Positions 5,563 to 45,622 of a stretch of DNA of 64,000 bases are shown one piece after another. This stretch comes from a virus: IMG/VR virus record IMGVR_UViG_3300037264_005839, one strand, 5' to 3'. The notes under the pieces are model-generated. The model saw only the letters and a list, made by a program, of their open reading frames with translations, made no database searches and had not been told where the DNA came from. Each line of letters begins with the position of its first letter. Position 1 is the first letter of the stretch. The translations under genes and the position numbers were made by a program.

Positions 5563-6090
5563 GTGAGCGACTACGATATCGTCGAGGTCATCCGAGAACC
5601 GTACGACCCGCGCTTCCAACTATGGAAGCGAGAGGGGCTACGTCTTGAGCAAGGGGACAAGGTCCCCATCGTCGGGATGGCCCCCACCTACGCCGTGCGT
5701 CTGCATTCCCAGGTGCCGGCCCCCGCCCGCTACCTCTGGGTTCAGGACGGTGTCATCACCAATCCGATGGCCCACCAGCCTATCGGGGACGCCTCTGTTT
5801 TCGACGCATGGGGTCGCTACCTGGGACGAGGCGGAAGTCCGCTGGACCCTCCCGCCACGGGCACTTGGGAGCAAGTCCTGATACGGGAATTTTCCCCCTC
5901 ATCTTCCCCATCGCCCGTCGAGGCGTCCCCGACACCCACGGCAACCACCGAGATGTTGATGCACCGCTTTCATCTGCGACAGGATCTGGAGATTCAAGTG
6001 AGCCTTCCTGCGGATCTCGACGAACGCGATGTAGGACGCCTGTGCGTATTCCTGCGGTCTCTTCCCTTTGCATCGGAGAAGACTCCGTGA
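5563..6090 (+). CDS. hypothetical protein
   Basis: GTG 5563 in frame with ORF 5182..6090 after the end of the 5103..5540 gene; the upstream part of that ORF is a shadow of 5103..5540. Confidence 0.4.
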   Translation: MSDYDIVEVIREPYDPRFQLWKREGLRLEQGDKVPIVGMAPTYAVRLHSQVPAPARYLWVQDGVITNPMAHQPIGDASVFDAWGRYLGRGGSPLDPPATGTWEQVLIREFSPSSSPSPVEASPTPTATTEMLMHRFHLRQDLEIQVSLPADLDERDVGRLCVFLRSLPFASEKTP

Positions 6091-6809
6091 AGATCGCAGT
6101 GGCGAGCGATCTCCACTTTGAGTTTCACCGGGACGGCGGCTATACGCTTTCGCAGGAGCTGGCAGAGGCGGATGTGCTCGTGTGCGCAGGGGATCTGTCG
6201 AGCTCTCGCGGAATCGGAGGGGCGCTCCAACTGCTTTGCAGTCGCTACCCTCACGTCGTCTTCGTTGCCGGAAATCACGAGCCGTACGGGAGTTCTATCT
6301 CTCAGATTCGCGAGGTACTCCGTCGCGCAGAACAACACAGCAACGGGCGTCTTCACGTGCTCGACAACTCGGTGTGCGAGATCGGTGGCCAGCGGTTCGT
6401 CGGCACCACCATGTGGACCCGTCGAACGCCGGGTATTCAAAAACGCCAACGCATGCTCAGCGACTTCGAGTTGATCAAGGATGCCGACCCGCTAGTGTAC
6501 GAGGAGAACGAGCAAGCCATCGCATTCCTCGAGCGTGAGGTGTCCTTGAGCGACGTGGTTGTCACCCATCATCTGCCTGTCGAGGCATCCATCCACCAAC
6601 AGTACAAGGGCTCACCGCTCAACTGCTTCTTTCTGTGCGACATGGAGCCGCTCATCCTTGAGCGTCAGCCCAGGCTTTGGATCCACGGCCACACCCATAC
6701 GTCGGTGGACGTGAAGATCGGTGCCACCAGGATCTTGTGCAATCCTTTCGGCTACGCTGCCCATGAGGAGAACCCGTCATTCGATTCCAGGCTGATCGTG
6801 GAAATCTGA
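6087..6809 (+). CDS. calcineurin-like metallophosphoesterase
   Basis: GTG 6087 overlaps upstream stop (GTGA); motifs KIAVASDLHFE, GDL, VAGNHE, HGHTH typical of PF00149. Confidence 0.8.
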   Translation: MKIAVASDLHFEFHRDGGYTLSQELAEADVLVCAGDLSSSRGIGGALQLLCSRYPHVVFVAGNHEPYGSSISQIREVLRRAEQHSNGRLHVLDNSVCEIGGQRFVGTTMWTRRTPGIQKRQRMLSDFELIKDADPLVYEENEQAIAFLEREVSLSDVVVTHHLPVEASIHQQYKGSPLNCFFLCDMEPLILERQPRLWIHGHTHTSVDVKIGATRILCNPFGYAAHEENPSFDSRLIVEI

Positions 6810-6841
6810 AGCGCGTCCTGGGCACGTGGGTTGTCTCCTAT

Positions 6842-7144
6842 GTGTCCCCGGAAGATGCTCCTCAGATGCACTTGGTTGTTGCACTCACCGGGGAGAGTGC
6901 CCGAGCCAAGGTTCACGGCGCCACCGGACTTCCGTACGACAATCTCTACGCCGAGCTCGTGCATCGAGACATGTCTCCTGTTCCAGCCAACCGCTGGAAC
7001 CCCAGTCTCGAGCGGTACCTCGGCTCCCTTGCGATATTCTCGCCACGCCACTCACGGCCATGTCCAAGTTGCCCGAGGACGCCGCTCCGCGAGTGCCCAG
7101 TGTGTGCCGGAACCGGGGTGCGTCCGCGGAAGCGCCCCCAGTAG
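6842..7144 (+). CDS. hypothetical small Cys-rich protein
   Basis: 100-aa ORF filling the gap before rtcB; CPSCP...CPVCAGTG. Confidence 0.3.
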   Translation: MSPEDAPQMHLVVALTGESARAKVHGATGLPYDNLYAELVHRDMSPVPANRWNPSLERYLGSLAIFSPRHSRPCPSCPRTPLRECPVCAGTGVRPRKRPQ

Positions 7145-7292
7145 AGGGATCAACGGCCTTCCTCGTGCTGGGTGTTGGGAGGCCCCCAGGACAGCATTTG
7201 GGGCCGTCCGGTACTCCGAGAGTGTAAAAACTACAGGAGACCCGTGTACGGGAGGAGGAAGCCGTCGCGGCTGACCTGCCAGAGGAAATGCC

Positions 7293-8699
7293 ATGAGCTT
7301 CAAGTACATAGTCGAGGCCGTCTCGCCGAATCACTTCGTGCTCCCGAAGACGGGAGACATGCGGTGCCACGTGGACGCGTTCCTGAGCCAGTCGCTCTAC
7401 GAGCAGACGGACGAGGGGCTGTGGCAACAGGCCGTGGACTCTGCCTCGTACGACGGGGTGCTCGGCGTCTACCTGATGCCCGACACGCACCTCGGCTACG
7501 GCATCCCGGTCGGGGGTGTCGTGGTCACCGACAACACGATCATCCAGAGCGGGAGTGGCTACGACATCTCGTGCGGCGTTGTCCAGATGCGCGTGCCGAA
7601 GTTGCACGCCTCGGACGTTGCAGACTGGGACAAGCGCGAGCGGTGGGTCCGTGAGGTCGAGAAGCGCGTCGCTACGGGCCTCGGCAACGACCGACCGGAA
7701 CTCGCCAAGCGGATCAAGCACCGCCAAGTCGAAGATGTGCTCCGATTCGGCGCCAAGGCGCTTGGTGTCTCGGCGGATCTCTGCGAGCGCCAGTACATCG
7801 AGATCCCCGAGGACATCGACCTGACGAAGATCGAGAAGGCGCACGAGAAGTGCATCCACCAGCTCGGAAGTGTCGGAGGAGGCAATCACTTCATCGAGAT
7901 GCAGGTGGACCGTGACGAGGGCTCCGTGTGGGTGATGATCCACTGCGGGTCTCGGGGCTACGGTTGGCAGACCGCGAACCACTTTTTCCACGAAGGGGCT
8001 GCCCTCCGGGGTCTTCCAAAGAACCGACGCGAACAGTCGCACCTCTACGCGGACGAGCCCCTCGGCAAAGAATACTGGGCACATCACAACAGCGCGGCGA
8101 ACTTCGCCGTGGCGAACCGGCACACTATCGTCGAAGGCGTCCAGGAGGCACTCCGAGAGATCTATGGGACGGGGGGCGAGGTCTACTACGAGATCAGCCA
8201 CAACCTCGTGCAGCAGGAGACGCTCGTGCTCCCCGATGGCACGACCAAGAAGGGCTTCGTGCATCGCAAGGGCGCGACGCGTGCCTTCCCGGCCGGACAC
8301 CCGGATCTCCGAGGCACGAAGTGGGAAGGTACGGGCCACCCGTGCCTGATCCCGGGCTCGATGTTGAGCGGGGCCGCGATCTTGTTCCCGAAGGCCGGTG
8401 CCTACGCGTCGGGGTGCTCAGTCAACCACGGGAGCGGTCGCATGCTCGGACGCGCGGCGGCGAAGCGCGAACTCGGCGAGATGCAGGGGGACATCGACGA
8501 CGAGATGCGGACCATCGAGCGTGTGTTCGACGGGGTCCCCATCATAGGCATCGTCGGGAACACCGCGAAGACGCCGCTCGACGAGTGCGGCATGGTCTAC
8601 AAGGATCTCGACGCCGTGCTCGACGTGCTGGTTCAGGAGGGCATCGCCGAGATCGCGCACCGCATGTACCCCGTCGCCAACATTAAAGGAACCGACTGA
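7293..8699 (+). CDS. rtcB: RNA 3'-phosphate/5'-OH ligase RtcB
   Basis: 468 aa; GAGGAAA RBS; blocks GGGNHFIEMQ, HCGSRGYG, SVNHGSGR match RtcB family signatures. Confidence 0.9.
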   Translation: MSFKYIVEAVSPNHFVLPKTGDMRCHVDAFLSQSLYEQTDEGLWQQAVDSASYDGVLGVYLMPDTHLGYGIPVGGVVVTDNTIIQSGSGYDISCGVVQMRVPKLHASDVADWDKRERWVREVEKRVATGLGNDRPELAKRIKHRQVEDVLRFGAKALGVSADLCERQYIEIPEDIDLTKIEKAHEKCIHQLGSVGGGNHFIEMQVDRDEGSVWVMIHCGSRGYGWQTANHFFHEGAALRGLPKNRREQSHLYADEPLGKEYWAHHNSAANFAVANRHTIVEGVQEALREIYGTGGEVYYEISHNLVQQETLVLPDGTTKKGFVHRKGATRAFPAGHPDLRGTKWEGTGHPCLIPGSMLSGAAILFPKAGAYASGCSVNHGSGRMLGRAAAKRELGEMQGDIDDEMRTIERVFDGVPIIGIVGNTAKTPLDECGMVYKDLDAVLDVLVQEGIAEIAHRMYPVANIKGTD

Positions 8700-8747
8700 T
8701 GCCTGAGAAGAACATCCAACCACAGATGACGCAAACGCGTCCTCAAC

Positions 8748-8885
8748 ATCGAGTGGAAGGAGACACAGATCCACGTCCCTCCAGAAATCTTCACCGACGA
8801 AGACGTGACGAAGTGGACGACCGGCATCCACGCGTGGGGAGTGGACAAGGCCATCGAGTACCTGCGGAAGGTCTGGAGCTGCTGA
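8748..8885 (+). CDS. small protein, start unresolved (possible frameshift or non-canonical start)
   Basis: frame with about 89% GC3 (IEWKETQIHVPPEIFTDEDVTKWTTGIHAWGVDKAIEYLRKVWSC) has no ATG/GTG/TTG; the ATG-initiated frame at 8699 is R-rich with low GC3. Confidence 0.3.
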   Translation: MEWKETQIHVPPEIFTDEDVTKWTTGIHAWGVDKAIEYLRKVWSC

Positions 8886-8886
8886 C

Positions 8887-9252
8887 ATGACCTCGATCCC
8901 CGTCATCGACAACAGGTTCATCTGCGTACAGGGCATCGAGATTCCACTGCCCCACTCCAAGGATCCAGAAGGCTTCATCACGCCGGACTGGCATGACATC
9001 ACCGAGTTCTACGGGGCGTGGTGCAACAGGGTGGCTGCGACGGGCCTGGAACCTTGGGCCCCCCAGCCCTTCCTCCTCTCCGTGGCGAAGGAGCTGGAGC
9101 GGCTGGAGGCACGTCCTGGACGCAACGCGGAGATGTGGTTCAAGCGCATGGTTCAGCACTTTGGCCTCGGGTGGCTCAAGGAGCGCATCGAGTTCATGAA
9201 ACGGGATCGCGACGGGCGTCTCGGGCAACTCCAGGAGACAGACGATGGGTGA
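8887..9252 (+). CDS. hypothetical protein
   Basis: 121-aa ORF; high GC3. Confidence 0.55.
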   Translation: MTSIPVIDNRFICVQGIEIPLPHSKDPEGFITPDWHDITEFYGAWCNRVAATGLEPWAPQPFLLSVAKELERLEARPGRNAEMWFKRMVQHFGLGWLKERIEFMKRDRDGRLGQLQETDDG

Positions 9253-9892
9253 CCCACACAACCCGGACCGCTACGGCGAGAGGTGGAACCCAGTGCGTTG
9301 GGCTGTCCTCGCCGCCGAGATCGATGCAGTGAAGGGGTACGGCGCGCTCTCCGGTGGTTGGGCTTGGCATTTTATGAGTCCTCCTCACGACGAGGAGAAA
9401 CACCTTCATGATCATCGCGACATCGACCTGCACGCGTTCCCTGACCGCTTCACCGAACTCATCGTGTTCCTCAAGGAACGCGGTTATCATCGACAGACGA
9501 CACGCTTCGACGATCCGAGTGGGGAGTTCGTGCGTTTTGAGAAGCATGTCGAGGCGTGCCGGACGTGTGGAAGCCAGGAGATCATCAAATCTTCTGAGGA
9601 CGATTCCTCTTTGGAGGAGTGGTTGTGCTTCAAATGTGGAGCGGGATCACCTGGTGGGGGTCCCTCTTGGGAGCCGGAGACTGTAAAGGTCATCTTCGAC
9701 CTGTTCGTGCAAGACGTGCCAACAATCGAGGTGGAGGGTTACTCGGTAGTCGAGCCCGGCCACATGCTGACCTTCTACGGCGTCAAGCACAGCTCGGAGC
9801 AGTGTGTCGCCGTTCAAGCGGCACGTCGCATCCTGGCCGCAGGTGGCGAGATCGTGAAGAACCCCCTCCTCGTCGGCGACTACGGAATTTGA
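9245..9892 (+). CDS. putative Pol-beta-type nucleotidyltransferase with C-terminal Cys ribbon
   Basis: LSGGWAWHF...HDHRDIDLH resembles the GS...DxD motif; CRTCGS...CFKCG. Confidence 0.4.
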   Translation: MGDPHNPDRYGERWNPVRWAVLAAEIDAVKGYGALSGGWAWHFMSPPHDEEKHLHDHRDIDLHAFPDRFTELIVFLKERGYHRQTTRFDDPSGEFVRFEKHVEACRTCGSQEIIKSSEDDSSLEEWLCFKCGAGSPGGGPSWEPETVKVIFDLFVQDVPTIEVEGYSVVEPGHMLTFYGVKHSSEQCVAVQAARRILAAGGEIVKNPLLVGDYGI

Positions 9893-9931
9893 CCCCGGAA
9901 TGGTGAAGATCCGATAGCTCTCTCTCTGAGG

Positions 9932-10639
9932 ATGAGCCGCGTCGAAGAAGACGGGTCGCAGTACCCAGAGGGACCCGTGGATTTGGTGCACGTGGGGCCC
10001 CCAGGAGAGCCTCTCTCCTCGTTCCTGATGCTCTATCACTACGCGGGGGGCATCTTCCCTCTGGGGATGCAACACGAGCGGCATCTGTGGTGGTCCCTTG
10101 AGCCGCGGGCCGTTCTCCAGACGAACCAAGTCAAGGTGAACCGGACACTCCGCAAGGTGATCCGTCGAGGCGACTATGTGGTCCGGGCCGACACGGCCTT
10201 CGATGCCGTCGTGGAACTGTGCCGTCTCACCCGTCAGACGGATGATGGGCCGGGATCGTGGATCACCGACGAGTATGTGCGCGTCTTCAGGACGCTGCAC
10301 AGGCTCGGACACGCCCACAGCATTGAGACTTGGCGGGGGGATCAACTGGCCGGTGGCCTTTTCGGGGTTGCCATGGGCCAAATGTTCTATGGCTGCTCGA
10401 TGTTCCGGCTCCAGCCGAACGCCTCCAAAGTGGCCTTGGTGGCGCTTGCACGGCAGTTGGATGCTTGGGGGTTCCCCCTCGTCGATTGCCAGATCCACAA
10501 TCCTCACTTGGGCCGCATGGGCGCACGCCTCATCCCTCGCATGCGCTTCCACGAGGTCGTGCGGAGCCTTGTACGTGGAAAACGCAGGGTTGGCTCTTGG
10601 GCCGATCAATTCCAAGCGCCGGGCGCCGCATCGTTTTGA
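9932..10639 (+). CDS. aat: leucyl/phenylalanyl-tRNA--protein transferase
   Basis: 235 aa; conserved L/F-transferase blocks WWSLEPRAVL, DTAFDAVVELC, GSWITDEYVRVFRTLHRLGHAHSIETWRGDQLAGGLFGVAMGQMFYGCSMF, DCQIHNPHLGRMGARLIPR. Confidence 0.8.
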   Translation: MSRVEEDGSQYPEGPVDLVHVGPPGEPLSSFLMLYHYAGGIFPLGMQHERHLWWSLEPRAVLQTNQVKVNRTLRKVIRRGDYVVRADTAFDAVVELCRLTRQTDDGPGSWITDEYVRVFRTLHRLGHAHSIETWRGDQLAGGLFGVAMGQMFYGCSMFRLQPNASKVALVALARQLDAWGFPLVDCQIHNPHLGRMGARLIPRMRFHEVVRSLVRGKRRVGSWADQFQAPGAASF

Positions 10640-10871
10640 GTATAAGGGGGGATGCCGGTCGAAAGGACCACCATCCTCCTCACAGGAGAAGAGGCACGTC
10701 GTCCGACACGGCGTGCCTCTCGAGATCGGCCGGAGGGGAAGGAGCTCGACTTGTGGTTCTCGTCGAGAGTTCCTTCCACCTTTGCGCTGTAGGGTTGGGG
10801 CGGGGGGTCGCGAGGCCCTCCGTCCCTGACCCTCTTTTCACGAACACTCTACCCCCACGACGAACAAGACA

Positions 10872-11159
10872 ATGGCCCAACCACAGACCGAAACAGAACG
10901 GAAAGCCAAGCTCGACGACACGATGCGCCGATTCGAGGAGCGCATGGCCGCAAACGAGGAGAAGTCCCGGCCGAAGCGTAGCCGCCAAGAGGTGCTCAAT
11001 GCGGCGATCGACGCCGTGCAGGAGCAGCTCGTCAAGGAACGCGAAGCCCTCCAGAAGAGGTTCCACATGGCCGCGCAGGAACATGCCCAACGCGAGACGG
11101 TCGAGAGTCTCGAGTGGCTCGTCGTCGATCTCAAGCGCATCCGCGACGAAGAGGTATGA
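10872..11159 (+). CDS. hypothetical coiled-coil protein
   Basis: 95-aa ORF downstream of the TTTTCACGAACACTCTACCCCC element. Confidence 0.5.
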   Translation: MAQPQTETERKAKLDDTMRRFEERMAANEEKSRPKRSRQEVLNAAIDAVQEQLVKEREALQKRFHMAAQEHAQRETVESLEWLVVDLKRIRDEEV

Positions 11160-11284
11160 GTCACTGGCACGAGGCACCGGATGTCCAGGGCTTCCGGGGC
11201 ATCTCCGTAATCGGTGCAGAGGCAACCACCAAGAAGTTCGCCGCCGAGGCGATGATTTTGAAGATCAGGGAGAACGGCACATGA
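11156..11284 (+). CDS. hypothetical small protein
   Basis: 42 codons; ATGA overlaps at both ends. Confidence 0.35.
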   Translation: MSHWHEAPDVQGFRGISVIGAEATTKKFAAEAMILKIRENGT

Positions 11285-11745
11285 TGGAACCACTCATCGA
11301 ACACAAAAACCCACACACCCAGATGCAGAGGATGGAGTCGGCGATCACGACGAATACGCAGAAGGCCAGAGAGCTGCTGCACGCCTTGGAACGGGCTCTG
11401 GTCCGATGCGGCCACGTCCGAGACACGATCTACAACAGCCACGTCGCTAATTTCACGTCCAGGCGCGAACGTGGTGTGGTTCTCTACTGGACGAAAGGCT
11501 GTATCTTGTGGGGCAGCGGACTCCTTCCGAAAGAGAGGGGAGAACCGCCAAGGGAACGCCCCCGGATCAGCGTGGACGACATGGATGCGGGGCAGATCCT
11601 CCGGGTCGCGCAGCACCTGAGTCCGTTCGTGGACCATCTTGAGGGCCACACACGCCACCTGTGCGCAAGGTTGATGGAGGCAGTCAACATCTTGGAGGCC
11701 ATGGTCGAAAAGATCCAAGACGACCCTCATCCTCCCGCTTCGTGA
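11281..11745 (+). CDS. hypothetical protein
   Basis: 154 aa; ATG overlaps upstream stop; this is the real part of the long composite ORF 10330..11745. Confidence 0.5.
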   Translation: MMEPLIEHKNPHTQMQRMESAITTNTQKARELLHALERALVRCGHVRDTIYNSHVANFTSRRERGVVLYWTKGCILWGSGLLPKERGEPPRERPRISVDDMDAGQILRVAQHLSPFVDHLEGHTRHLCARLMEAVNILEAMVEKIQDDPHPPAS

Positions 11746-11783
11746 ATCTCACCGTGAACGCTGCCCGGTAGAGTCGGACACAC

Positions 11784-12170
11784 ATGGCAAACGTCGAGTT
11801 CTACCAAGACGAGAGCGAGAAAGCCGAGTGGCGCTGGCGCGTCACGGCGTCCGACGGGACCCTCATCGGAAAGAGCACCGAGGGCTACTCGCGCAAACAC
11901 AACGCCGAGAACAACCTACGTTCCCTTCCAAACTACACGCGGTCCGTGGACATCAAGACCGCAGCAGCCGTGGGCACCACTCGGCCTCCTGGCGCTCGGC
12001 TCCCCCTTGAGTTCTACACGGACGATGGGGGCAAGTGGCGTTGGCGCGTCACGGCTGGCAACGGCAACATCGTGTACGCGTCGCCTGCAGGCTTCGACAC
12101 GAAGGAAACCGCTGTCCTGAATCTTGAAGGACTACTCTACGCCACCGCTGCTTGGAACAAGAAATCATGA
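11784..12170 (+). CDS. tandem YegP/DUF1508-domain protein
   Basis: two repeats (EFYQDESEKAEWRWRVTASDG.. / EFYTDDGGKWRWRVTAGNG..) with the AEN/ETA signature of DUF1508. Confidence 0.65.
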   Translation: MANVEFYQDESEKAEWRWRVTASDGTLIGKSTEGYSRKHNAENNLRSLPNYTRSVDIKTAAAVGTTRPPGARLPLEFYTDDGGKWRWRVTAGNGNIVYASPAGFDTKETAVLNLEGLLYATAAWNKKS

Positions 12171-13099
12171 AGCTGCACTGCCGAATCTTCCGAGACGACG
12201 TTCTCGCCGAAGAACGCCTGTTCGATCAGGACATCATCAAGATCGGGCGTCTCGAGAGTTCACACATCTCCCTCAAAGACATCGCAAGGATGCACGCGGT
12301 GCTCGAGCGAGATCACCACGGTGTTTGGCGGCTCCTCGATCTCGGCAGTTCGATGGGATCGAAACTCAATGGCGTCTTCGTGGACAAGAATGCCGAGATC
12401 GGCTCGTCGGGGGAACTTCAATTCGGATCTTGGCGCATCCTATTCCTTGCGACAGAGGGGACCGACGTGTTGCCGAGTAATGGGCCGGCCCCTGACCCGC
12501 GGGAGCACCACCGAACGCTGCTGGAGGCGTTGATCAAAGAGATGCACAAGCACAGCAGTCAGACTGCGCGCTCCGCCGAGAAACTGCTTGCCACATGGTC
12601 TCTGTTGGACGAGGAACGGAAGCGAAAGATGCTCCGCACGCTCATTGTCGCCATCAGGAGCGCACGCGTCGACTCTGTACGCGTCGGCCGCCAGATGGTG
12701 GCGAGCATGCTCAAGCTGGGGTCCGAGGGCATCGCCGAGATCTACGAACTCGAGCCGGCACAGGCGCTTGTGCAAGCTCGAGCCGCGTTGATCACAGTGG
12801 CGCAGGCGAAGGCGGCCTTGGCAGCTCTTGAGTCGCTCAAGTTGCGCGAGGTCGTGGACAACGCCCCAACCGAAGAGGACGAGGAGAGGAAGGAGAGCAT
12901 CTCCCATTTCGTCAAGGGCCACGAAGATCTTGAGGAGCTGCTACAGCAGGAGATGGTGATGGGGGTCTCGATTCTCAGCGCATGCCTCAGCAGGGCTGGG
13001 GGTCATGTGCTCACGCATCGAGAGCGTGTCGAACTCCGACACGCCTACGAGAAACTCGAGAAGGCGGCGAACGAAGCTAGCGCTTCCACGTCAGCGTGA
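12167..13099 (+). CDS. FHA-domain protein with helical C-terminal region
   Basis: ATGA overlap; KIGRLESSHISLKD...HAVLERD..WRLLDLGSSMGSKLNG fits the FHA fold signature. Confidence 0.6.
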   Translation: MKLHCRIFRDDVLAEERLFDQDIIKIGRLESSHISLKDIARMHAVLERDHHGVWRLLDLGSSMGSKLNGVFVDKNAEIGSSGELQFGSWRILFLATEGTDVLPSNGPAPDPREHHRTLLEALIKEMHKHSSQTARSAEKLLATWSLLDEERKRKMLRTLIVAIRSARVDSVRVGRQMVASMLKLGSEGIAEIYELEPAQALVQARAALITVAQAKAALAALESLKLREVVDNAPTEEDEERKESISHFVKGHEDLEELLQQEMVMGVSILSACLSRAGGHVLTHRERVELRHAYEKLEKAANEASASTSA

Positions 13100-13736
13100 T
13101 CTGCTTCGACTCAAGTCGAAGACGGATGGTCATGCTGTCGTCGTTGATGTGCACCACGTCGCCCTCCATTTCTCGGTAGAGACCGTCGACGACGAGGACT
13201 CTCTCACCCTCAAGGAAGCGCCCTTGGATCTTCGGGGCCTGCGCGAGCAGGTGCTCGGAAGACCAAATTGCAGGCCCGTTGCCCCGGATGGGTTCGTTGA
13301 GAATGCCAGGTTTGCCTACGAGCATCTGGCACGCCGTCCTGACACGCCGGTGCGTGTCGTCGTTACGCATGTCTGTTTGGAGGTGGTTCACCAAGGCACG
13401 GAGGACCCAGTGCCGAACAGCACCCTGACTCGCGTTCATCCTACGTGCCACCTCGGACTGGCTACTCGTTTCCGCGTAGAGAGCCATCGCCTCCACATCA
13501 CTGTCCCTCGCCCCCAACTCTCGGAGAACTCCTCGAATTTCATCTGGCGAAACTCGAGGGATCTTTTCCATGAACTCAAGCCGCTCGCGGGCGCGGGCGT
13601 ACCGGTAGTTCACCGTTGGTTGCGAGACCCCCAAGATTTTCGCAACCTCGGTCTGGGACTTTCTCAACGATAAATGCAGGCGCAGGATGTCGCGCTCCAT
13701 GGGAGGGAGACGCGCGATGTCTTCGCTGTTCAGCAT
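13077..13736 (-). CDS. transcription regulator: two sigma-70 region-4-like HTH plus C-terminal KOW-like domain
   Basis: ERDILRLHLSLRKSQTEVAKILGVSQPTVNYRYARARERL and a second HTH; C-term GERVLVVDGLYREMEGDVVHINDDSMTIRLRL resembles the NusG KOW; start ATG 13736 lies 11 nt after CGGTAGAGTG. Confidence 0.6.
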   Translation of the reverse strand: MLNSEDIARLPPMERDILRLHLSLRKSQTEVAKILGVSQPTVNYRYARARERLEFMEKIPRVSPDEIRGVLRELGARDSDVEAMALYAETSSQSEVARRMNASQGAVRHWVLRALVNHLQTDMRNDDTHRRVRTACQMLVGKPGILNEPIRGNGPAIWSSEHLLAQAPKIQGRFLEGERVLVVDGLYREMEGDVVHINDDSMTIRLRLESKQITLTWKR

Positions 13737-13797
13737 CGGCCATAGACACTCTACCGAGCGATTTCTTCGTCGAAAATGACGGGGTAGAAGGGGGACC
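13737..13797. promoter_or_regulatory. divergent control region between HTH-KOW regulator and RecA-like ATPase genes
   Basis: contains CGGTAGAGTG (minus orientation), palindrome TTCGTCGAA, and GGGGTAGAAGGGGG (plus orientation). Confidence 0.45.
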
Positions 13798-14469
13798 ATG
13801 CAGATCGGGATCGAGTTTTTCGACAAGCAAGAACCCAAACCAGGGGACCTGTGGTTGGTGGCCAGTGGCCCTTCCATGGGCAAGTCGACCGTGCTCCGCA
13901 ACATCGCTGTAGGGATCGCAGACAACCTTGATGGTGGACGGATCACCTACTGGGATCTCGAGCAGACCTACGCAGCTTGGCGTTCGCGCATCGAGAAGAT
14001 GGGGTGCGACGTGCCGGCCACCCTCACCTACCGCAACGACAGTGCATACCTGGACGGCCACCGCAACGGTGAGATCCTTCCTGCCCTGAACCTCGGAGCG
14101 CCATCAGGTACTGCCGTCGTGGTTATCGATCATTTTGATCTGTTCACGGAGACTCACGATGCTGGACTCAAGACCCTCAAGATCTGGCTCGTGCGTACGG
14201 GAAAATTCGGGATCGTCTCGATGAGTCTTCCGCGCGAGGTGTGGGGCAATCTCAAGGCCGAGGGCGAGATCCACCCAGATTCTCTGCCCGAGCACATGCT
14301 CGACAACGCCGACGCTGTCTTTGCCTGTGGGAAGACTCCTCAGCGAGCCATCGACAACGGCGATGCGGACACGCTTCGCGTCGTTGTCTGCAAGACCCCA
14401 ACCGGACTGCGGGACCCCCACAACTATCACGCGTTCATCTGGAACCACAAGACCGGACGCATCTCGTAA
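13798..14469 (+). CDS. RecA-superfamily P-loop ATPase (DnaB C-terminal/KaiC-like)
   Basis: Walker A GPSMGKST, Walker B VVVIDHFD; preceded by GGGGTAGAAGGGGG. Confidence 0.65.
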   Translation: MQIGIEFFDKQEPKPGDLWLVASGPSMGKSTVLRNIAVGIADNLDGGRITYWDLEQTYAAWRSRIEKMGCDVPATLTYRNDSAYLDGHRNGEILPALNLGAPSGTAVVVIDHFDLFTETHDAGLKTLKIWLVRTGKFGIVSMSLPREVWGNLKAEGEIHPDSLPEHMLDNADAVFACGKTPQRAIDNGDADTLRVVVCKTPTGLRDPHNYHAFIWNHKTGRIS

Positions 14470-14481
14470 AGGAGGTTCCAC

Positions 14482-14898
14482 GTGAGGCGAACACCATGCA
14501 TCGCGTTGTCAATGCTCCTCGCGGGGTGCTTCGGCGAGTTTGATCCCGACCTGAGCGGCTTCCAGCCAGAGGAGGGGGTATTCAGCCCGTGCGAGTCGAG
14601 CCAGGATTGTTCCTCCGACGGCGCGTGCCTCGGGTCCTCGGACATGGCTGTCCAGCTCGACGACACATGGGATGGTGAGGGCGCCTGCACGCGGTGGGCG
14701 ACCGGCAGCGACCCTGACCTTGAGTGCGCGCCCTACCCGGAAGGGTACGCGACCGCCGAGATCGCGTACGGAATGGATGCCAGCGGCGATAGGTTCTGCG
14801 TCCTTGAGTGTGCCGGAGGGCTCAAGTGTCCCGTGGGCATGGACTGCATTCACGTCTATAGTCCTGCCGTCATGTACGAGGCCGAGGTGTGCTTGTGA
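14482..14898 (+). CDS. Cys-rich secreted lipoprotein
   Basis: GTG start 7 nt after AAGGAGG; signal peptide with lipobox LLAGC; 10+ Cys in the mature part. Confidence 0.6.
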   Translation: MRRTPCIALSMLLAGCFGEFDPDLSGFQPEEGVFSPCESSQDCSSDGACLGSSDMAVQLDDTWDGEGACTRWATGSDPDLECAPYPEGYATAEIAYGMDASGDRFCVLECAGGLKCPVGMDCIHVYSPAVMYEAEVCL

Positions 14899-14952
14899 AT
14901 TCCCGAATTCAGATGCCGCTGGGTCCCCTCCACTGGGCATGGAGATGGTGTC

Positions 14953-15288
14953 GTGTCCCAAAGTGATCGCCAGATCGAGATCCCCATCGAGCTTCTCGGG
15001 CACCAGCTTCGTGAGAAGATCGTCGAGATGCTCGTCCTCGTGGAGCACCTCTCGATCATGGCGACGCCACCAGGTCTCTCGATCTTCGGGAACCTCTGCA
15101 TGCTGGGAGCGCAGTGTTGTCAGCACGTGGCGCTGGGGCGGCGCGAGCAAGCTCTCTTCGCTGCAATCACCATTGGTCGTGCAGTGCCACATGCCTTCCC
15201 GGTCGGGCGTGAGCGGGAAGTTCTTGAGCAGGCTCTGGAGGAGATCATCGCGGTCCTCGAGTGCCCCACGAGCGACGACCTCCACTAG
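14953..15288 (+). CDS. hypothetical protein
   Basis: 111 aa; about 77% GC3; fits exactly between neighbours; the antisense ORF 14509..16572 is judged a shadow. Confidence 0.4.
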   Translation: MSQSDRQIEIPIELLGHQLREKIVEMLVLVEHLSIMATPPGLSIFGNLCMLGAQCCQHVALGRREQALFAAITIGRAVPHAFPVGREREVLEQALEEIIAVLECPTSDDLH

Positions 15289-15318
15289 ATTTTTCACGAT
15301 TGGCGTATAAGCCATGCG

Positions 15319-16614
15319 ATGAGTCGGCGACGCGTTGGGACCTTCCAGATGCTGTGGGACTGTTCCTGCGGCACCGGCCCCTTGCTGGGCATCGACCATC
15401 GGCACTGCCCTTCCTGTGGGCGCCCACAGGACCCCCTGCGTCGGTACTTCCCGGATCAGAGGGATGCGGTTCCGGCCCCCGAGTGGGTGGTCGGCAGCGG
15501 TGCTGACCTCTACTGCCCGTACTGCTCCACGGCCAACGTGGCCCAAGCCACCTTCTGTGTGGGTTGTGGGGGACCCATGGACGGCTCCAAGGAGGTCGAG
15601 CGTCGGGAGGCCAACCACGGGACCTCGGCCGAGACGATCCAAGACGCCCTCTCTGAGGCTCGCCAGGAGGCCCAGGAACGGCGCGAGGCCGTGGCAGAGG
15701 CCCAGGCCCCAGACGCGCAGCGGGCCCGGGAGAGGGCTCGTGCAGCCGATCAGGCAACCCCTCGTGAGAGCACGCAGGTGAGGGTGGAATCCCCGCGTAA
15801 ACCCCGCGCTCCGCATCCAAAAATGGCGGCCTTGAGGCGCCACTGGGATCACCTCCGACGACCGGCGATGGTCGGGATGGGGGTGCTCGGTTTGCTGGTG
15901 CTCCTGTGGGCCATCTTCGCGTGGGAGAAGACGATCACCGCCGAGGTTGAGCACCGCTCGTGGGAGCGCTCGCAGGAGATCGAGCGTTTCGTACAACTCT
16001 CTGACTCGTCGTGGTGCGACGACCGACCTGGAGATGCCTACGATGTTGATGAGAGTCGTCGACAACGAGGCACGAGGACAGTCATTGACTGTCGAGACTG
16101 CGACTGCCACACAGAGCAAGTCAAGGTTGGCGAGAACTGTTACGAGGCGAACTGCAGGACCGTCCGCACGGACAATGGCAACGGATCGTTCGACGTGACT
16201 GAAGTGTGCGACCGCAGGTGCGATCCCGTTCACGAAGACCGGCAGATCTGCAAGGACCGGACACACGAAGAGTCCGTCTACGACGAATGGTGCTCGTACA
16301 GGATGGACCGATGGCGACCCCACCGCACGGCCTCGGAAGAGGGCAACTTCTCGCGTGCCCCGGCGTGGCCGGAGCTCGATCTGCGGACGTGCGGCAGGAT
16401 CGAGTTCGGGTGCGAACGACCGGGAGCCAGGAAAGAGAACTACGTCGTCAGTTTCCGCGACGTGCAGGATGACGAGCACTACGAGTGCTCCTACCCGCAG
16501 TCGGCGTGGACTCGATACGAAGAAGGAAGTTTGTGGAAGGCAACGGTGAAGCGTCTCGGTGGCCGCTTCCAATGTGCCTCGCTCGTTGCCATGGCTTCGG
16601 AGACGGAGATCTGA
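15319..16614 (+). CDS. membrane protein with N-terminal zinc ribbons and Cys-rich extracytoplasmic domain
   Basis: CPSCG, CPYCS, CVGCG, then TM segment VGMGVLGLLVLLWAIFAW, then many Cys; TATAAG 7 nt upstream of ATG (leaderless-type). Confidence 0.6.
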   Translation: MSRRRVGTFQMLWDCSCGTGPLLGIDHRHCPSCGRPQDPLRRYFPDQRDAVPAPEWVVGSGADLYCPYCSTANVAQATFCVGCGGPMDGSKEVERREANHGTSAETIQDALSEARQEAQERREAVAEAQAPDAQRARERARAADQATPRESTQVRVESPRKPRAPHPKMAALRRHWDHLRRPAMVGMGVLGLLVLLWAIFAWEKTITAEVEHRSWERSQEIERFVQLSDSSWCDDRPGDAYDVDESRRQRGTRTVIDCRDCDCHTEQVKVGENCYEANCRTVRTDNGNGSFDVTEVCDRRCDPVHEDRQICKDRTHEESVYDEWCSYRMDRWRPHRTASEEGNFSRAPAWPELDLRTCGRIEFGCERPGARKENYVVSFRDVQDDEHYECSYPQSAWTRYEEGSLWKATVKRLGGRFQCASLVAMASETEI

Positions 16615-16633
16615 TCATGGGAGAGAACGGAAG

Positions 16634-17500
16634 ATGACCGACAAGACCTCACTTGGGGACAGGATGAAACACTACGAGGAGGTGTCCTGCACCATCCTCA
16701 CGCCTCGCATGCCGATGATCATCCGCATCGACGGACGTGCCTTCCACACGTACACGAAGAAACTGCATCACGGGATGCGGGAAGAGTCTCCGTGGAATCC
16801 CGTGATGCGCGATGCGATGACGGCTGCCGCCCGCGGTCTCATGCGTGAGATCAGCGGGGCCAAGATTGCATACCTCCAGTCTGACGAGATCAGCGTCCTC
16901 GTCACCGACTACGACAAACTGTCTTCGCAGGCTTGGTTCGACAAGGCCGCGCAGAAGGTGTGCTCGGTGGGGGCGTCCATCGCTACGATGGAGTTCAACA
17001 ACAACATCCGCGACTACATCGACTCCGGGCTCCCCGCCGAGATGTTCCCGACGACTGCGACGTTCGACGCGCGCGTCTTCGTGGTGCCGAGGGAGGATGT
17101 CTGCAACTATTTCATCTGGCGGCAGCGGGATGCAGAGAAGAACTCGATCTCGATGCTGGCGCAGACGCATTTCTCCCCCAAGCAGCTCCATGGCAAGGAC
17201 GGCAACGCAAAGCAGGACATGTTGATGCTCGAGAAGGGCGTCAACTGGAACGACCTGCCGACGTGGCAGAAACGCGGGTGGTGCGTGGACCGCAAGACGA
17301 TCACCATGACCGTGGCCGAACTCGAGATGGCGGGCGGCAAAGTGACACGGAATCCCGGCGTTGTGCTCGACCCGAACACCGAGGTCACACGCACCGTGGT
17401 TGAACCTGACTGGGAGATCCCGATCTTCACGAAGGACCGCGGCTACATCGATCAGTTCGTGAACGTGGACGAGGCGCCCTTGAAGGGGGAGGAGCCCTGA
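16634..17500 (+). CDS. Thg1-like protein (tRNA-His guanylyltransferase family 3'-5' polymerase)
   Basis: RMKHYE, RIDGRAFH, QSDEISV, FDARVF, NYFIWRQRDAEKNSI, WQKRGWC blocks. Confidence 0.8.
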   Translation: MTDKTSLGDRMKHYEEVSCTILTPRMPMIIRIDGRAFHTYTKKLHHGMREESPWNPVMRDAMTAAARGLMREISGAKIAYLQSDEISVLVTDYDKLSSQAWFDKAAQKVCSVGASIATMEFNNNIRDYIDSGLPAEMFPTTATFDARVFVVPREDVCNYFIWRQRDAEKNSISMLAQTHFSPKQLHGKDGNAKQDMLMLEKGVNWNDLPTWQKRGWCVDRKTITMTVAELEMAGGKVTRNPGVVLDPNTEVTRTVVEPDWEIPIFTKDRGYIDQFVNVDEAPLKGEEP

Positions 17501-18252
17501 TGCGCTTGGTCATCACCAGCGACACGCATGGTTTCCATCGCGGATGGGGCGTCTACGACAAGGCGATGCCTGAGGGGGACGTCCTCGTCCATGCGGGAGA
17601 CTTCTCTCGAGACCATGGCTCGTGGCAGGACGTGGTGCGCTTCGCCGCGTGGATGGAGAAGCAGCCACACCGGCACAAAATCCTGTGCCCCGGCAACCAC
17701 GATGTGGGGATCCACGAGAACCGGAACAAAGCGGCGCTGCTGTTCACGGCGCACGGAATTCATCTCCTCGGCATCCAGACCGACCGCGTCGAGATCGACG
17801 GGATCACCTTCGCAGGAGCTCCTTGGATGCCAATCAGTGGATGGGTTCCCCCTTGGGGGTTCGAGACGCCCGATTACGAGCGAGAGAGGCTGTGGGCTCG
17901 GGTAGAACCCTCGGATGTCCTCGTGACCCACTCGCCTCCCATGGGAATCCTCGATCAGACGGCCAAAGGCGAGCACATCGGGTGCCCACTGCTCCAGCGC
18001 CACGTCCTCGGGCGCCTCCGTCCACGTCTCCACATCTTTGGACACGTCCACGAAGCGCGAGGCATCCACGAGGAAGAGGGCATCGTCTTCATGAACGCCT
18101 GCTCTAACACACGGGGCACTTTTGTCCGCGACGACATCAAGGGGATCACGCACATGACCATGGGCATCCACGACCCGATGGTCTACAACCTTGAGCGTGA
18201 TCCTACCGGCCCTGCAGAAGTTGCCTATGGAGATCATAAGGTTGAGAGGTGA
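17500..18252 (+). CDS. calcineurin-like metallophosphoesterase
   Basis: TGATG overlap; ITSDTHG, HAGDFS, CPGNHD, THSPP, GHVHE motifs. Confidence 0.8.
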   Translation: MRLVITSDTHGFHRGWGVYDKAMPEGDVLVHAGDFSRDHGSWQDVVRFAAWMEKQPHRHKILCPGNHDVGIHENRNKAALLFTAHGIHLLGIQTDRVEIDGITFAGAPWMPISGWVPPWGFETPDYERERLWARVEPSDVLVTHSPPMGILDQTAKGEHIGCPLLQRHVLGRLRPRLHIFGHVHEARGIHEEEGIVFMNACSNTRGTFVRDDIKGITHMTMGIHDPMVYNLERDPTGPAEVAYGDHKVER

Positions 18253-18265: not shown

Positions 18266-18766
18266 GTGAACACGCCGTACGGACAGTTGGAGGCACTCCT
18301 CCAGAATCTTCGGGAATGCGGCCTGACGGTCGCGTTCGCTGAATCCTGCACGGGAGGGCGCCTCTGCGCAGATCTGACGACCGTGCCGGGATCTTCTGAT
18401 GTCGTGGTTGGATCTGCTGTGTGCTACCAACTGGCAGCGAAACGGAAGGTGTTGGGTCTTGAGGATGTGGACGAGCAGAATGTGGTGTCGGGTCAGACGG
18501 CGCTGGCGATGGCGACAGCTACACGTCGCCTCTTCGGGGCGGACTTCGGTGTCGCGACGACGGGCTATCTGAGTCCGCATGAATCCAACGGACAAGCGTG
18601 GGAACCCGCCGCCTACTGGGCGATAGCAGGACCCCAGGTGGAACGGTGGGACGGCGTGGAGCTCTCGTCACACATGCCTCGAGACTTGAACCGCGAACTT
18701 GTCGTACGCGCCACGATGCAGGCATTGGTAACGGCTGTTTCTCGAGAGAAGAGGAGCCCGGCATGA
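18266..18766 (+). CDS. CinA C-terminal domain / NMN amidohydrolase PncC-like
   Basis: TVAFAESCTGGRLCADLTTVPGSSDVVVGSAVCYQLAAKRKVLGL; GTG start after AGGGGAC. Confidence 0.75.
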   Translation: MNTPYGQLEALLQNLRECGLTVAFAESCTGGRLCADLTTVPGSSDVVVGSAVCYQLAAKRKVLGLEDVDEQNVVSGQTALAMATATRRLFGADFGVATTGYLSPHESNGQAWEPAAYWAIAGPQVERWDGVELSSHMPRDLNRELVVRATMQALVTAVSREKRSPA

Positions 18767-19044
18767 CCCATGAGCAGCACATCGCCGTCCTGAAGCGGTA
18801 CGCCGAGAAGTTCACGAAGTGGTCAAGCGAGTGCTGTCCCGGCAACTTCGACCAGCCTCCAGGGGTGGGACGCGCGGTGAAACATATCAACTGGATGATC
18901 CACGAAATGCTGCACCGTCTGGAAGCCCACGAGGATCGTCCAGGACAAGCTGACCGTTGGATAGGGTTCATCCAAGGCGTCCTCTGGAACAACGGCTTTT
19001 TCACGATCGACGATATGAAGGCTCACAACACCGAGCCCGCGTAG
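18763..19044 (+). CDS. hypothetical protein
   Basis: ATGA overlap; 93 aa. Confidence 0.5.
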   Translation: MTHEQHIAVLKRYAEKFTKWSSECCPGNFDQPPGVGRAVKHINWMIHEMLHRLEAHEDRPGQADRWIGFIQGVLWNNGFFTIDDMKAHNTEPA

Positions 19045-19052
19045 GAGCACCC

Positions 19053-19493
19053 ATGGACCTCAAGTACGACCCTGCACGCCACGCCGTCTGCTGTCTCCTG
19101 ATGAATCAGGACGGGGACATACTTGCAATCTCTCGCCTCAAGGTAGGCCCTGCGGACCAGCCGGTCGCCGACCACGACCGATGGGGAATGCCGGGCGGCA
19201 AGGTCGAGAGCAACGAGTCTCTCGACGTGGCCGTCGTGCGAGAGACCTACGAAGAAACCGGCTTCGTCATCGCAGCTCCTCAGTCCGTCTACACCGCGTT
19301 CGTTCCTGGCGAGAGCAACTTCATCTGCACGACCTTCGTGGCGCACATCGTGGCACAGGCCCCGGATGCACCTCGCAGCGTGCCCTTTGAGGGTGACGTC
19401 GCCTGGGTGTCTCCCGCCGTCCTCGCCGCGGGGCCCTTCGCGGAATACAACCAGGCGTTGTTTGAACATCTCAACATCCGGTGGCATGAGTGA
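19053..19493 (+). CDS. NUDIX hydrolase
   Basis: Nudix box GGKVESNESLDVAVVRETYEETGF. Confidence 0.8.
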   Translation: MDLKYDPARHAVCCLLMNQDGDILAISRLKVGPADQPVADHDRWGMPGGKVESNESLDVAVVRETYEETGFVIAAPQSVYTAFVPGESNFICTTFVAHIVAQAPDAPRSVPFEGDVAWVSPAVLAAGPFAEYNQALFEHLNIRWHE

Positions 19494-20142
19494 GACTCAC
19501 CTGTTGGTGGCGCACACAATGAACAATCCATTCGACGAGCTTCACGAACAGGAGCGGCACTGGACTCTGAGCGACGAGGGGATCGAGATCACCTACGATG
19601 CGGATTTTCTCGTAGACGTTGACGCTGACCGTCAGTTCGCAGCCCTCAAGACAGAGATCCCGTGGCGCCGCTTCCAGATGTCAACGCCAGACGGACCACG
19701 TGCGGTGCCAAGGATGATCTCGTGGCATGCAGACGCAGATCTCAGCTACAAGTACGGCGTCGTCACTCACGCGTGGCAGGCTTGGACTCCGACTTTACTG
19801 GAAGTGCGGGGTCTTCTTGAGGCAAAGCTCGGGATCTATTTCAACGGGGTCCTCGCCAACCTCTACGAGAATGAGCGTGACTCGGTGTCTCCCCATGCGG
19901 ACGACGAGCGTGACATGGTCGACGGAGCAGCCATCGCCTCGGTGAGTTTTGGGGCCACCCGGGAGTTCGTCGTCCGGCACATGACCAACCGAAATCGCTA
20001 CGCCACCCACCTTGAACACGGATCCCTCTTGGTGATGAGCGGAGACACCCAGAGGGTCAGCCGGCACTCTGTGCCGAAGGCCAAGCGGGCGTGTGGCCCG
20101 AGGATCAATCTGACTTATCGCATCGCGCGAGGCAGCGGTTGA
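19486..20142 (+). CDS. alkB: AlkB-like Fe(II)/2-oxoglutarate dioxygenase
   Basis: HADDE..(HxD), VSFGATREFVVRH, GSLLVMSGDTQRVSRHSV(P) match the AlkB core. Confidence 0.8.
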   Translation: MSETHLLVAHTMNNPFDELHEQERHWTLSDEGIEITYDADFLVDVDADRQFAALKTEIPWRRFQMSTPDGPRAVPRMISWHADADLSYKYGVVTHAWQAWTPTLLEVRGLLEAKLGIYFNGVLANLYENERDSVSPHADDERDMVDGAAIASVSFGATREFVVRHMTNRNRYATHLEHGSLLVMSGDTQRVSRHSVPKAKRACGPRINLTYRIARGSG

Positions 20143-20203
20143 CGCGGACGCTTCTCCATGGATTCGACGAAACCCTTCGATTACCCAAGTAGGATCACCG
20201 ACG

Positions 20204-20458
20204 ATGTCTTGCTCCCCTTTGCTCAACGGTGTCTCGGACCCGCTCAAGGTGCTCAAAATCGTGTGGGAACACCGGATCTTGTGCTGGTCCGAGCCTCCAA
20301 ACACGTTCCGTCCGCTCGAGCAACTCGGGTGGGTCGTATACCGTGAGGGGGCATGGCGTATAACGGATGAGGGGAAAAAAGCTGCACTCGCAGCGGTGGC
20401 TGAGACTGTCGAAGTTGAGGACACCCCCACATCCATCGCGGAGTTCTTCGGACTATGA
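20204..20458 (+). CDS. hypothetical protein (winged-helix-like?)
   Basis: 84-aa ORF with good GC3; the alternative 20158..20346 is R-rich. Confidence 0.45.
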   Translation: MSCSPLLNGVSDPLKVLKIVWEHRILCWSEPPNTFRPLEQLGWVVYREGAWRITDEGKKAALAAVAETVEVEDTPTSIAEFFGL

Positions 20459-20784: not shown

Positions 20785-20794
20785 GGAGGGTACG

Positions 20795-21163: not shown

Positions 21164-21166
21164 GCC

Positions 21167-27993: not shown

Positions 27994-28017
27994 GCCTCAC
28001 CAGGAACATACAGACAA

Positions 28018-40067: not shown

Positions 40068-40160
40068 CCCCTCTGGACACGGATCACCCCACCTCGCTGG
40101 TGACGCTCTACGACGCCTCCTGAGGGCCTGTACTTCTCAGGGGGTACAAGGGAGGAGGCC

Positions 40161-40674: not shown

Positions 40675-40675
40675 C

Positions 40676-41155: not shown

Positions 41156-41158
41156 GCC

Positions 41159-41866: not shown

Positions 41867-41875
41867 GATCGAAGC

Positions 41876-43711: not shown

Positions 43712-43721
43712 CAGGAGAAAC

Positions 43722-45618: not shown

Positions 45619-45622
45619 ACTT

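Follow-up and report, generated by a model that had tools for sequence, protein, structure and literature searches.

RtcB, Thg1-like and nucleotidyltransferase genes as candidate RNA-maintenance functions of an uncultivated huge phage

RNA breaks made by metal-independent anticodon nucleases and by HEPN or toxin RNases carry 2′,3′-cyclic phosphate or 3′-phosphate and 5′-hydroxyl ends, and the ligase RtcB seals such 3′ ends directly to 5′-hydroxyl ends with no end healing required. Thg1-like proteins (TLPs) work on 5′-phosphorylated ends, and those of the bacterial type favour 5′-truncated tRNAs over G−1 addition to tRNA-His in vitro. Earlier work by Burroughs and Aravind (2016, NAR 44:8525) is said to underlie the later survey of jumbo phages by Iyer et al. 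Jumbo phages, as that survey describes (2021, section 3.4.9), carry RtcB and ATP-grasp RNA ligases, Thg1, RNA-repair kinases and phosphatases (calcineurin-like in a small number) and the Pol-beta nucleotidyltransferases (NTases) RlaP and CCA-adding enzyme, all read by its authors as countermeasures to host tRNA nucleases (PMC7824862). RlaP, the RNA-ligase-associated Pol-beta NTase, adds one or two nucleoside monophosphates to damaged RNA 3′-OH ends and restores tRNA function (PMC12776372). Here we analyse a 64,000-nucleotide stretch of viral DNA (IMG/VR record IMGVR_UViG_3300037264_005839; the window) that encodes an RtcB, a TLP, two calcineurin-like metallophosphoesterases (MPE1 and MPE2) and a small NTase, p215. 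At a probability of roughly 0.55, we read RtcB, TLP and p215 as separately acting tRNA/RNA maintenance enzymes that uphold translation in infection, probably against host RNA-targeting effectors, with the two phosphoesterases acting elsewhere. The original prediction located all five genes correctly (Table 1) and joined them into one tRNA/RNA repair toolkit. RtcB and TLP remain plausible repair enzymes, with the p215 family showing an association with RtcB and tRNA arrays; for the phosphoesterases a place in the set is not supported.

RtcB and the Thg1-like protein

RtcB matches the PF01139 profile over its whole length (positions 1-426 of 426; E = 4.4e-85; 286.9 bits against a cutoff of 27) and can be aligned from end to end with its counterpart in Pyrococcus horikoshii (1uc2/4dwr; E ~ 1e-47). 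The metal-binding Asp, Cys and His residues and the GMP-accepting histidine, the site of guanylylation, are kept: D91, C94, N198-H199, H217, H303 and H379 match D95, C98, H203, H234, H329 and H404 of the P. horikoshii enzyme. The protein is full length, intein-free and of the archaeal/eukaryal-like long type. In the RtcB of a close relative (82% identity; L117, 8645-11134), an intein of about 350 residues interrupts the reading frame-preserving sequence immediately before the catalytic cysteine, in frame (…GYDIS/CFTKD…VFVHN/CGVV…). No archease or RtcA partner was detected among the window open reading frames (ORFs) scanned.

TLP matches PF04446 (E = 1.1e-27; 97 bits against a cutoff of 29.2) and phrog_4717 (E = 1.7e-87). 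Its closest solved relative is Bacillus thuringiensis BtTLP (4kgk; E = 4.7e-65), and human Thg1 matches with E = 1.3e-12. The catalytic carboxylates D33 and D84-E85 are kept (human D29, D76 and E77), and the protein reads DAEKNSISM at the place of eukaryotic DCHINNLYN, which marks it as a bacterial-type TLP without HINNLYN. Neither alignment showed the loss of catalytic residues that would have spoken against function. Among 50,697 phage records, RtcB, a common gene of large phages, occurs in 513 and TLP in 162; our literature search found no experimental study of any phage TLP.

In IMG/VR, 21 viral contigs, 41-619 kb in length, carry RtcB homologues with 57-82% identity, often beside tRNA genes. 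These lie within 10 kb in 13 of the 19 distinct loci and number at least five (5-23) in 10 of them, mostly on the same strand and just upstream of RtcB, and six of these loci also have a gene for transfer-messenger RNA (tmRNA). The sister lineages conserve the order tRNA array-tmRNA-HNH-vWA-RtcB-p130-GroEL, and an Rfam scan found a bacterial RNase P RNA at two of seven related RtcB loci.

Two features of these sister contigs deserve mention in their own right. The RNase P RNAs are full-length class A molecules (L115, 143-483; L119, 641-983; 259-262 bits). The contigs that carry them are classified as viral, and each lies upstream of RtcB within an array of some 18-22 tRNAs with a tmRNA gene. 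Twelve sister contigs (L112-L131) encode a conserved 130-residue protein and a full-length GroEL-like chaperonin about 1.5-2.5 kb 3′ of RtcB.

The p215 family and tRNA arrays

The original prediction had put forward p215 as a putative Pol-beta NTase, a guess that holds at the fold level because of the invariant motifs and the modelled fold. The protein has no match in Pfam (E <= 0.01), and hence none to the RlaP family PF10127, nor in PHROGs or NCBIfam; more than 145 homologues occur in metagenomes, all without annotation. In an alignment of 37 p215 sequences, S36-G37-G38 and D59-x-D61 are invariant and D152 nearly so. A strikingly conserved His-rich loop, SGGWAWHFMSPPHxExKHLHDHxDID, lies between the first two motifs, and a CxxC…CxxC insert is lineage-specific. 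A structure model (pLDDT 90) places S36-G37-G38 where strand 33-36 ends and helix 37-44 begins, the DxD on strand 60-64 and D152 on strand 145-155. The model resembles solved NTases, its nearest folds being ANT/Lnu and MenT/TglT, the latter tRNA-nucleotidylating toxins. By this predicted structure, p215 is a minimal Pol-beta-fold NTase with the motif set hG[GS]…[DE]x[DE]…[DE], in an undescribed family.

To either side of p215 lie two further genes. At its 3′ end p121, which has no family match in Pfam, PHROGs or NCBIfam, shares 8 nt with the start of p215. The aat gene follows 39 nt downstream and encodes an N-degron pathway enzyme that uses aminoacyl-tRNA. It is well supported (TIGR00667, 182.8 bits against a cutoff of 143.55), lies next to or near p215 in L087, L088 and L290, and has homologues in just 7 of the 50,697 phage records; PHROGs holds no Aat family.

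A scan of IMG/VR that used the p215 alignment yielded 19 loci in about 14 distinct groups, on contigs of up to 619 kb and with locus GC contents of 25-63%. RtcB lies within 10 kb in 5 of the 14 groups and belongs to two independent RtcB clades, in a small and phylogenetically structured sample. At L291, an RtcB of the other clade (27% identity) begins 240 nt 3′ of the p215 homologue, within a 14-tRNA array. A tRNA array of at least five genes lies within 10 kb in 6 of the 14 groups; at L297 the homologue sits between tRNA-Met and tRNA-Cys in an array of 24. With TLP loci as background, Fisher tests gave p = 3.5e-5 for the p215-RtcB association (p = 0.02 if the related RtcB lineage is counted once) and p = 0.002 for the association with tRNA arrays. 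At loci with neither RtcB nor tRNA genes, Pfam searches of the neighbours found no second recurrent partner, the neighbours being a mixture that includes one LigD 3′-phosphoesterase, HD, Macro, MBL and PRPP synthetase proteins. The association of the p215 family with RtcB and tRNA arrays is therefore suggestive, not proven.

Tentatively, p215 might found a new huge-phage family of Pol-beta-fold NTases that repair or re-tailor tRNA 3′ ends or reverse damage to the acceptor 3′ end. It would then be a functional analogue of RlaP or of the CCA-adding enzyme, and MPE2 or an HD_4 protein encoded elsewhere in the window might clear blocking 3′ phosphoryls. We consider this specific role possible but unlikely. 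If it is true, RtcB (anticodon-loop breaks), TLP (the 5′ acceptor end) and p215 could between them rebuild all three vulnerable sites of a tRNA.

The proximity to tRNA arrays also bears on a different proposal, that RtcB, TLP and p215 mature the phage's own tRNA and tmRNA, for example by joining processed pieces, adding G−1 to tRNA-His or completing 3′ ends, as part of a self-encoded translation kit, and do not answer host attack. RtcB at the edge of arrays of 5-23 tRNAs with tmRNA, the RNase P RNA at two loci, p215 homologues embedded in arrays, and the initiation factor IF-3 encoded in the window are all compatible with such a role, as are the viral TLP loci, roughly a quarter to a third of which lie no more than 10 kb from tRNA genes. 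The search for substrates argues the other way. ARAGORN in intron mode made only a few implausible calls, so that we found no credible intron-containing or split tRNA gene near related RtcB, and Rfam detected no group I intron at the seven related RtcB loci scanned. Together these two results leave the refutation named by the original prediction, a consistent linkage of such genes to intron-containing tRNAs, untriggered: tRNA arrays adjoin RtcB without credible introns. Splicing of intron-containing tRNAs was accordingly rejected as the function. The window itself contains no tRNA gene by ARAGORN with or without its intron search, nor do the 10 kb upstream of it (74 kb together), and the in vitro preference of bacterial-type TLPs for 5′-truncated tRNAs over G−1 addition also speaks against maturation. 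We regard maturation as unlikely.

In the repair and maintenance reading that we prefer, RtcB would reseal RNA breaks with 2′,3′-cyclic phosphate or 3′-phosphate and 5′-hydroxyl ends. TLP would restore lost 5′ nucleotides of tRNA acceptor stems by templated 3′-5′ addition, and p215 would most likely add nucleotides to an RNA 3′ end, probably that of tRNA. Together the three would sustain translation while the phage infects its host, whose RNA-targeting defence or toxin effectors they would probably counter. Other translation and RNA genes of the window (IF-3, Aat, Endonuclease V and a DEDD exonuclease) count in favour.

Several observations weigh against this reading. We know of no defence nuclease that trims tRNA 5′ ends, so the repair substrate of TLP in vivo would be hypothetical. 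With no tRNA gene in those 74 kb, it is sister lineages that supply the tRNA-island context. The counts of linked loci lack phylogenetic independence, and distant p215 homologues at L084, at L086 and in 7 of the 14 IMG/VR groups have neither RtcB nor tRNA genes nearby. Small-molecule (antibiotic) NTases, too, are among the proteins structurally close to p215. As for the host, one genome_contigs scan with TLP returned scattered matches of <=46% identity in unrelated metagenome-assembled genomes and no close relative. From the evidence as a whole we infer that the enzymes would act on the substrates given above, in a counter-defence role.

Phosphoesterases and gene layout

Both phosphoesterases appear catalytically intact. 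MPE1 matches Metallophos (E = 1.3e-13) and phrog_1649 (E = 3.8e-46) and has a complete set of motif residues (D8/H10, D36, N63/H64, H161-162 and H202/H204); MPE2 matches Metallophos with E = 9.4e-13. The motifs present in both (DxH, GD, GNH[ED], H and GHxH) form a superfamily-wide, non-specific set. A metagenome gene call starts MPE1 at 6042, 45 nt upstream of 6087. The 193 phage records that have an MPE1 homologue include many T4-like vibriophages and cyanophages, and MPE1 lies upstream of RtcB in the closest relatives only (L087, L111/L290 and L117).

The original prediction had likened the calcineurin-type genes to the healing module of Pnkp, a comparison that the structural database does not bear out. 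In phmmer and profile searches of all PDB chains, at the level of sequence, neither protein matched Pnkp or lambda phosphatase up to E = 1. The sole match of the MPE1 profile was a weak one (E = 1.8e-4) to 6unc, an uncharacterised Metallophos-domain protein. MPE2 matches MPPED2 (3rl4), alone with E = 8e-27 and as a family profile with E = 4.3e-51 (profile positions 2-183 of 186). From this full-length similarity, MPE2 is of the MPPED2 type and would be a phosphodiesterase acting on nucleotides or cyclic nucleotides. Pfam scans of window ORFs found no polynucleotide kinase, Rnl-type ligase or ligase-adenylyltransferase/Hen1. Membership of MPE1 and MPE2 in RNA repair is not supported, and both are likely engaged in something else.

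One candidate for that other activity is counter-defence or salvage centred on nucleotide signals or NAD, in which the phosphoesterases and possibly p215 take part: MPE2, the CinA/PncC-domain protein and the Nudix hydrolase would degrade cyclic-nucleotide or ADP-ribose signals or recycle nucleotides, and RtcB and TLP would be unrelated neighbours. The strong MPPED2 match of MPE2 fits this proposal, and an MPPED orthologue hydrolyses cAMP and cGMP (PMC10547211). So does the layout, since the genes for CinA/PncC, Nudix and AlkB-like proteins follow MPE2, and in the acidobacterial jumbo phage Tunturi_5 (Tunturiibacter) an MPE2 homologue is flanked by genes for a dNMP kinase and a nucleoside deoxyribosyltransferase. 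The window further encodes Sir2, HD_4, dihydrofolate reductase (DHFR) and dCMP-deaminase-like proteins and a deoxyribosyltransferase-like/Nudix fusion, and Iyer et al. predict that calcineurin-like phosphodiesterases act against cyclic-nucleotide signals (PMC7824862). Clustering of neighbours at 80 viral loci, however, yielded no recurrent functional partner of MPE2, only lineage-specific hypothetical proteins, and the proposal does not explain why p215 is associated with RtcB and tRNA arrays. We think it quite unlikely.

The original prediction went further and treated all five genes as one coordinated module. As a pathway, the phosphoesterases would see to the healing of ends, the NTase and TLP to their rebuilding and RtcB to the sealing, a non-T4 answer to anticodon nucleases. 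Several findings point that way. All five enzymes are intact, and the order MPE1-RtcB-p215-Aat-FHA-sigma-TLP-MPE2 recurs in L111/L290 (618,736 bp) and L087 (a 235-kb JGI contig), the two closest relatives visible in full. The TLP stop and MPE2 start overlap as predicted, with one base in common (…CCC TGATG CGC…); at L265, an unrelated viral locus, an MPE2 homologue lies directly upstream of TLP; and a few jumbo phages are reported to have calcineurin-like phosphatases in their RNA repair (PMC7824862).

The layout tells against such a pathway. A minus-strand gene for a sigma-like protein separates the RtcB group from the TLP group, which makes for two transcription units or more, and over ten unrelated genes lie interspersed among the five. 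Relatives have the sigma-like gene in the same orientation, with 55-59% identity; it converges on the plus-strand FHA gene with an overlap of about 23 nt, and the pair is kept in L087, L088 and L290. A bidirectional hairpin lies at 11238-11252, after the ORF that follows Aat. A promoter scan gave fewer promoter-like sites than shuffled sequence and few well-placed terminators, too weak a result for calling operons.

Linkage elsewhere is poor as well. Of 155 viral TLP loci, 2 have RtcB within 10 kb, and of 21 genomic TLP loci, 1 has RtcB adjacent. MPE2 homologues lie within 10 kb of TLP in 5 of the 155 (four distinct), directly adjacent in one, and none of 80 viral loci has TLP or RtcB within 6 kb of an MPE2-family gene. 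In Bacillus phages Eldridge and G, neither a phosphoesterase nor RtcB lies near TLP. Among the close relatives, L088 has MPE2 with TLP missing at that position, and in L087 three other genes separate TLP from MPE2. Given the poor linkage in other loci and these differences, the order kept in L087 and L290 is most simply explained as synteny by descent.

Nor does the chemistry call for a pathway. RtcB takes termini bearing 3′-phosphate or 2′,3′-cyclic phosphate, a substrate that a 3′-phosphatase would destroy, and TLP acts on 5′-phosphates, so there is no obligatory enzyme series, and neither a kinase nor an Rnl-type ligase to use healed ends was found among the window ORFs scanned. MPE2 is MPPED2-type and neither phosphoesterase resembles Pnkp or lambda phosphatase; MPE1, for its part, is common in T4-like vibriophages and cyanophages, groups outside the ten most frequent RtcB-carrying genera. 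RtcB, TLP, MPE1, MPE2 and p215 are not one operon-like coordinated module, and a joint five-gene pathway is very unlikely.

Window content, relatives and known systems

Because RtcB relatives of 57-82% identity and the gene order common to the 619- and 235-kb contigs both lead to large genomes, the window is taken to be a piece of an uncultivated huge phage; on the best reading, the region is part of the accessory-gene arm, with the 235- and 619-kb contigs as closest relatives. Megablast of the region against the 50,697 phage records found no nucleotide-level relative, and tblastn of the 2074-residue and a 415-residue window protein against them gave almost no matches and no isolate relative. 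The window has a GC content of 59-64%, carries nearly all genes between 4.7 and 36 kb on the plus strand, and contains no Rfam family at gathering thresholds in its 64 kb. Metagenome gene calls (L001) underlie some entries of Table 1.

Table 1 Features of the window (coordinates in nucleotides of the 64,000-nt stretch)
Feature	Coordinates	Strand	Basis
MPE1, calcineurin-like metallophosphoesterase	6087-6809	+	Metallophos, phrog_1649, motifs
RtcB 3′-phosphate/5′-OH RNA ligase, 468 aa	7293-8699	+	PF01139, P. horikoshii RtcB alignment
p121, conserved hypothetical protein	8887-9252	+	L001 gene call; 45% identical homologue in L088
p215, predicted minimal Pol-beta-fold nucleotidyltransferase	9245-9892	+	Fold and motifs
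Aat, leucyl/phenylalanyl-tRNA-protein transferase	9932-10639	+	PF03588 (E = 2e-60); TIGR00667
FHA-domain protein	12167-13099	+	Gene call, kept in relatives
Sigma-70 region-4-like protein	13077-13736	-	Pfam Sigma70_r4/r4_2 (precomputed) on gene calls in L001, L087 and L088
Thg1-like protein (TLP), 288 aa	16634-17500	+	PF04446, phrog_4717, 4kgk
MPE2, MPPED2-type (class III) metallophosphodiesterase	17500-18252	+	Metallophos, 3rl4
CinA/PncC-domain protein, nicotinamide-nucleotide amidohydrolase family	18266-18766	+	PF02464 (E = 1.6e-30); TIGR00199
Nudix hydrolase	19053-19493	+	Family match
AlkB-like dioxygenase	19516-20142	+	Family match
Endonuclease V	21167-21862	+	E = 1.8e-51
YqiJ_N (NfeD-like) and 612-aa SPFH/Band-7 protein pair	27421-29856	+	Pfam
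Sir2-family protein	48349-49263	-	Pfam
HD_4 (RelA/SpoT-type HD hydrolase) protein	50185-50796	+	Pfam
LemA and probable TPM-domain protein pair	51566-53006	+	Pfam
Translation initiation factor IF-3, complete	53029-53550	-	IF3_N (E = 1.9e-29), IF3_C (E = 3.2e-32)
1013-aa protein, neighbour of the 2074-aa ORF	53839-56880	-	Laminin_G_3 domain
2074-aa ORF	56953-63177	-	No Pfam or PHROG match; almost no phage homologue

The TLP-MPE2 group leads into a plus-strand run of "clean-up" genes (18266-21862) for the CinA/PncC-domain protein, a 148-residue protein, Nudix, AlkB-like and Endonuclease V proteins. The first of these begins 13 nt after MPE2, at a start taken from the L001 gene call, and scores 74.9 bits against the TIGR00199 cutoff of 68.9. 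Further ORFs at 40000-48000 have Pfam matches to a C5 DNA methylase, two R2K-clade ATP-grasp proteins and an AAA_16/STAND-type NTPase. Together with the DHFR, dCMP-deaminase-like, deoxyribosyltransferase-like/Nudix fusion and DEDD exonuclease genes already mentioned, these make up an accessory content typical of huge phages.

Some of these genes invite separate comment. The HD_4 and Sir2 proteins could bear on alarmone, tRNA-pyrophosphorylation or NAD-based defences. The membrane-associated pairs YqiJ_N/SPFH and LemA/TPM are uncommon in phages, and the 2074-residue ORF and its Laminin_G_3 neighbour are possible structural or host-interaction proteins. Between MPE1 and RtcB, which are 483 nt apart, a putative small plus-strand ORF (6842-7144) has a CxxC…CPVCAGTG zinc-finger motif; L087 has at that place a 129-residue gene with a faint DnaJ_CXXCXGXG match.

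Set against described systems, the individual proteins are easier to place than their combination. The phage TLP shares its catalytic carboxylates and TLP-type motif with BtTLP (4kgk) and other bacterial and archaeal TLPs and differs from BtTLP by an insert of about 36 residues ahead of the C-terminal segment. This intact BtTLP-like protein and its relatives are usable test cases for the role of 5′-end tRNA repair in infection. The p215 family, like RlaP (PF10127; Carruthers, Fatma and Huang, 2025 preprint, PMC12776372), would be a small Pol-beta-fold NTase encoded near RNA ligase genes; unlike RlaP, it lacks a PF10127 match, has the distinctive His-rich loop and has ANT/Lnu and MenT/TglT as its nearest folds. 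As a new candidate RNA-repair or tRNA-modifying enzyme, recurring by RtcB and in tRNA arrays across 25-63% GC, it is open to simple nucleotide-addition assays of its candidate function. The phosphoesterases have a calcineurin fold in common with bacterial Pnkp-Hen1 (Clostridium thermocellum type), but Pnkp is a fusion of kinase, phosphatase and ligase domains with Hen1 as its partner, whereas MPE1 and MPE2 stand alone, and no similarity in sequence was detected between them and the Pnkp or lambda phosphatase chains of the PDB.

At the level of whole gene sets, the tRNA, tmRNA and RtcB genes of large phages (mycobacteriophage and phiCbK types) are like those of the relatives described here, whose RtcB adjoins tRNA/tmRNA arrays, and unlike the window, where RtcB stands apart from any tRNA array. 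In phiCbK, RtcB likewise lies in an accessory region, with Band-7 (adjoining RtcB), HD and NAD-salvage genes. Phage T4 uses Pnkp and Rnl1 on PrrC-cleaved tRNA-Lys with the same presumed aim, the restoration of tRNA after attack by an abortive-infection nuclease. There, a kinase and a HAD phosphatase heal the ends and an ATP-dependent ligase joins 3′-OH to 5′-phosphate; RtcB, in contrast, is driven by GTP and joins 3′-phosphate or 2′,3′-cyclic phosphate directly to 5′-OH, and no Pnkp or Rnl homologue was found in the window.

The closest parallel is the RNA-repair sets of jumbo phages (Iyer, Anantharaman, Krishnan, Burroughs and Aravind, 2021, Viruses 13:63), which have the same components and the same proposed purpose. 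The original prediction held the combination to be undescribed; RtcB, calcineurin-like phosphatases, Pol-beta NTases and Thg1 are all described there (PMC7824862). The differences are that the NTases of those sets are RlaP and CCA-adding enzymes, whereas p215 belongs to a family without an HMM model, that the window has no ATP-grasp/Rnl ligase, polynucleotide kinase or HAD phosphatase, and that it comes from a lineage for which no sequenced isolate relative was found. Adding one more uncultivated huge-phage lineage to that known picture, the RtcB/Thg1 kit changes little: these repair genes are of a kind already catalogued in large phages, and the unclassified NTase family is the modestly novel element.

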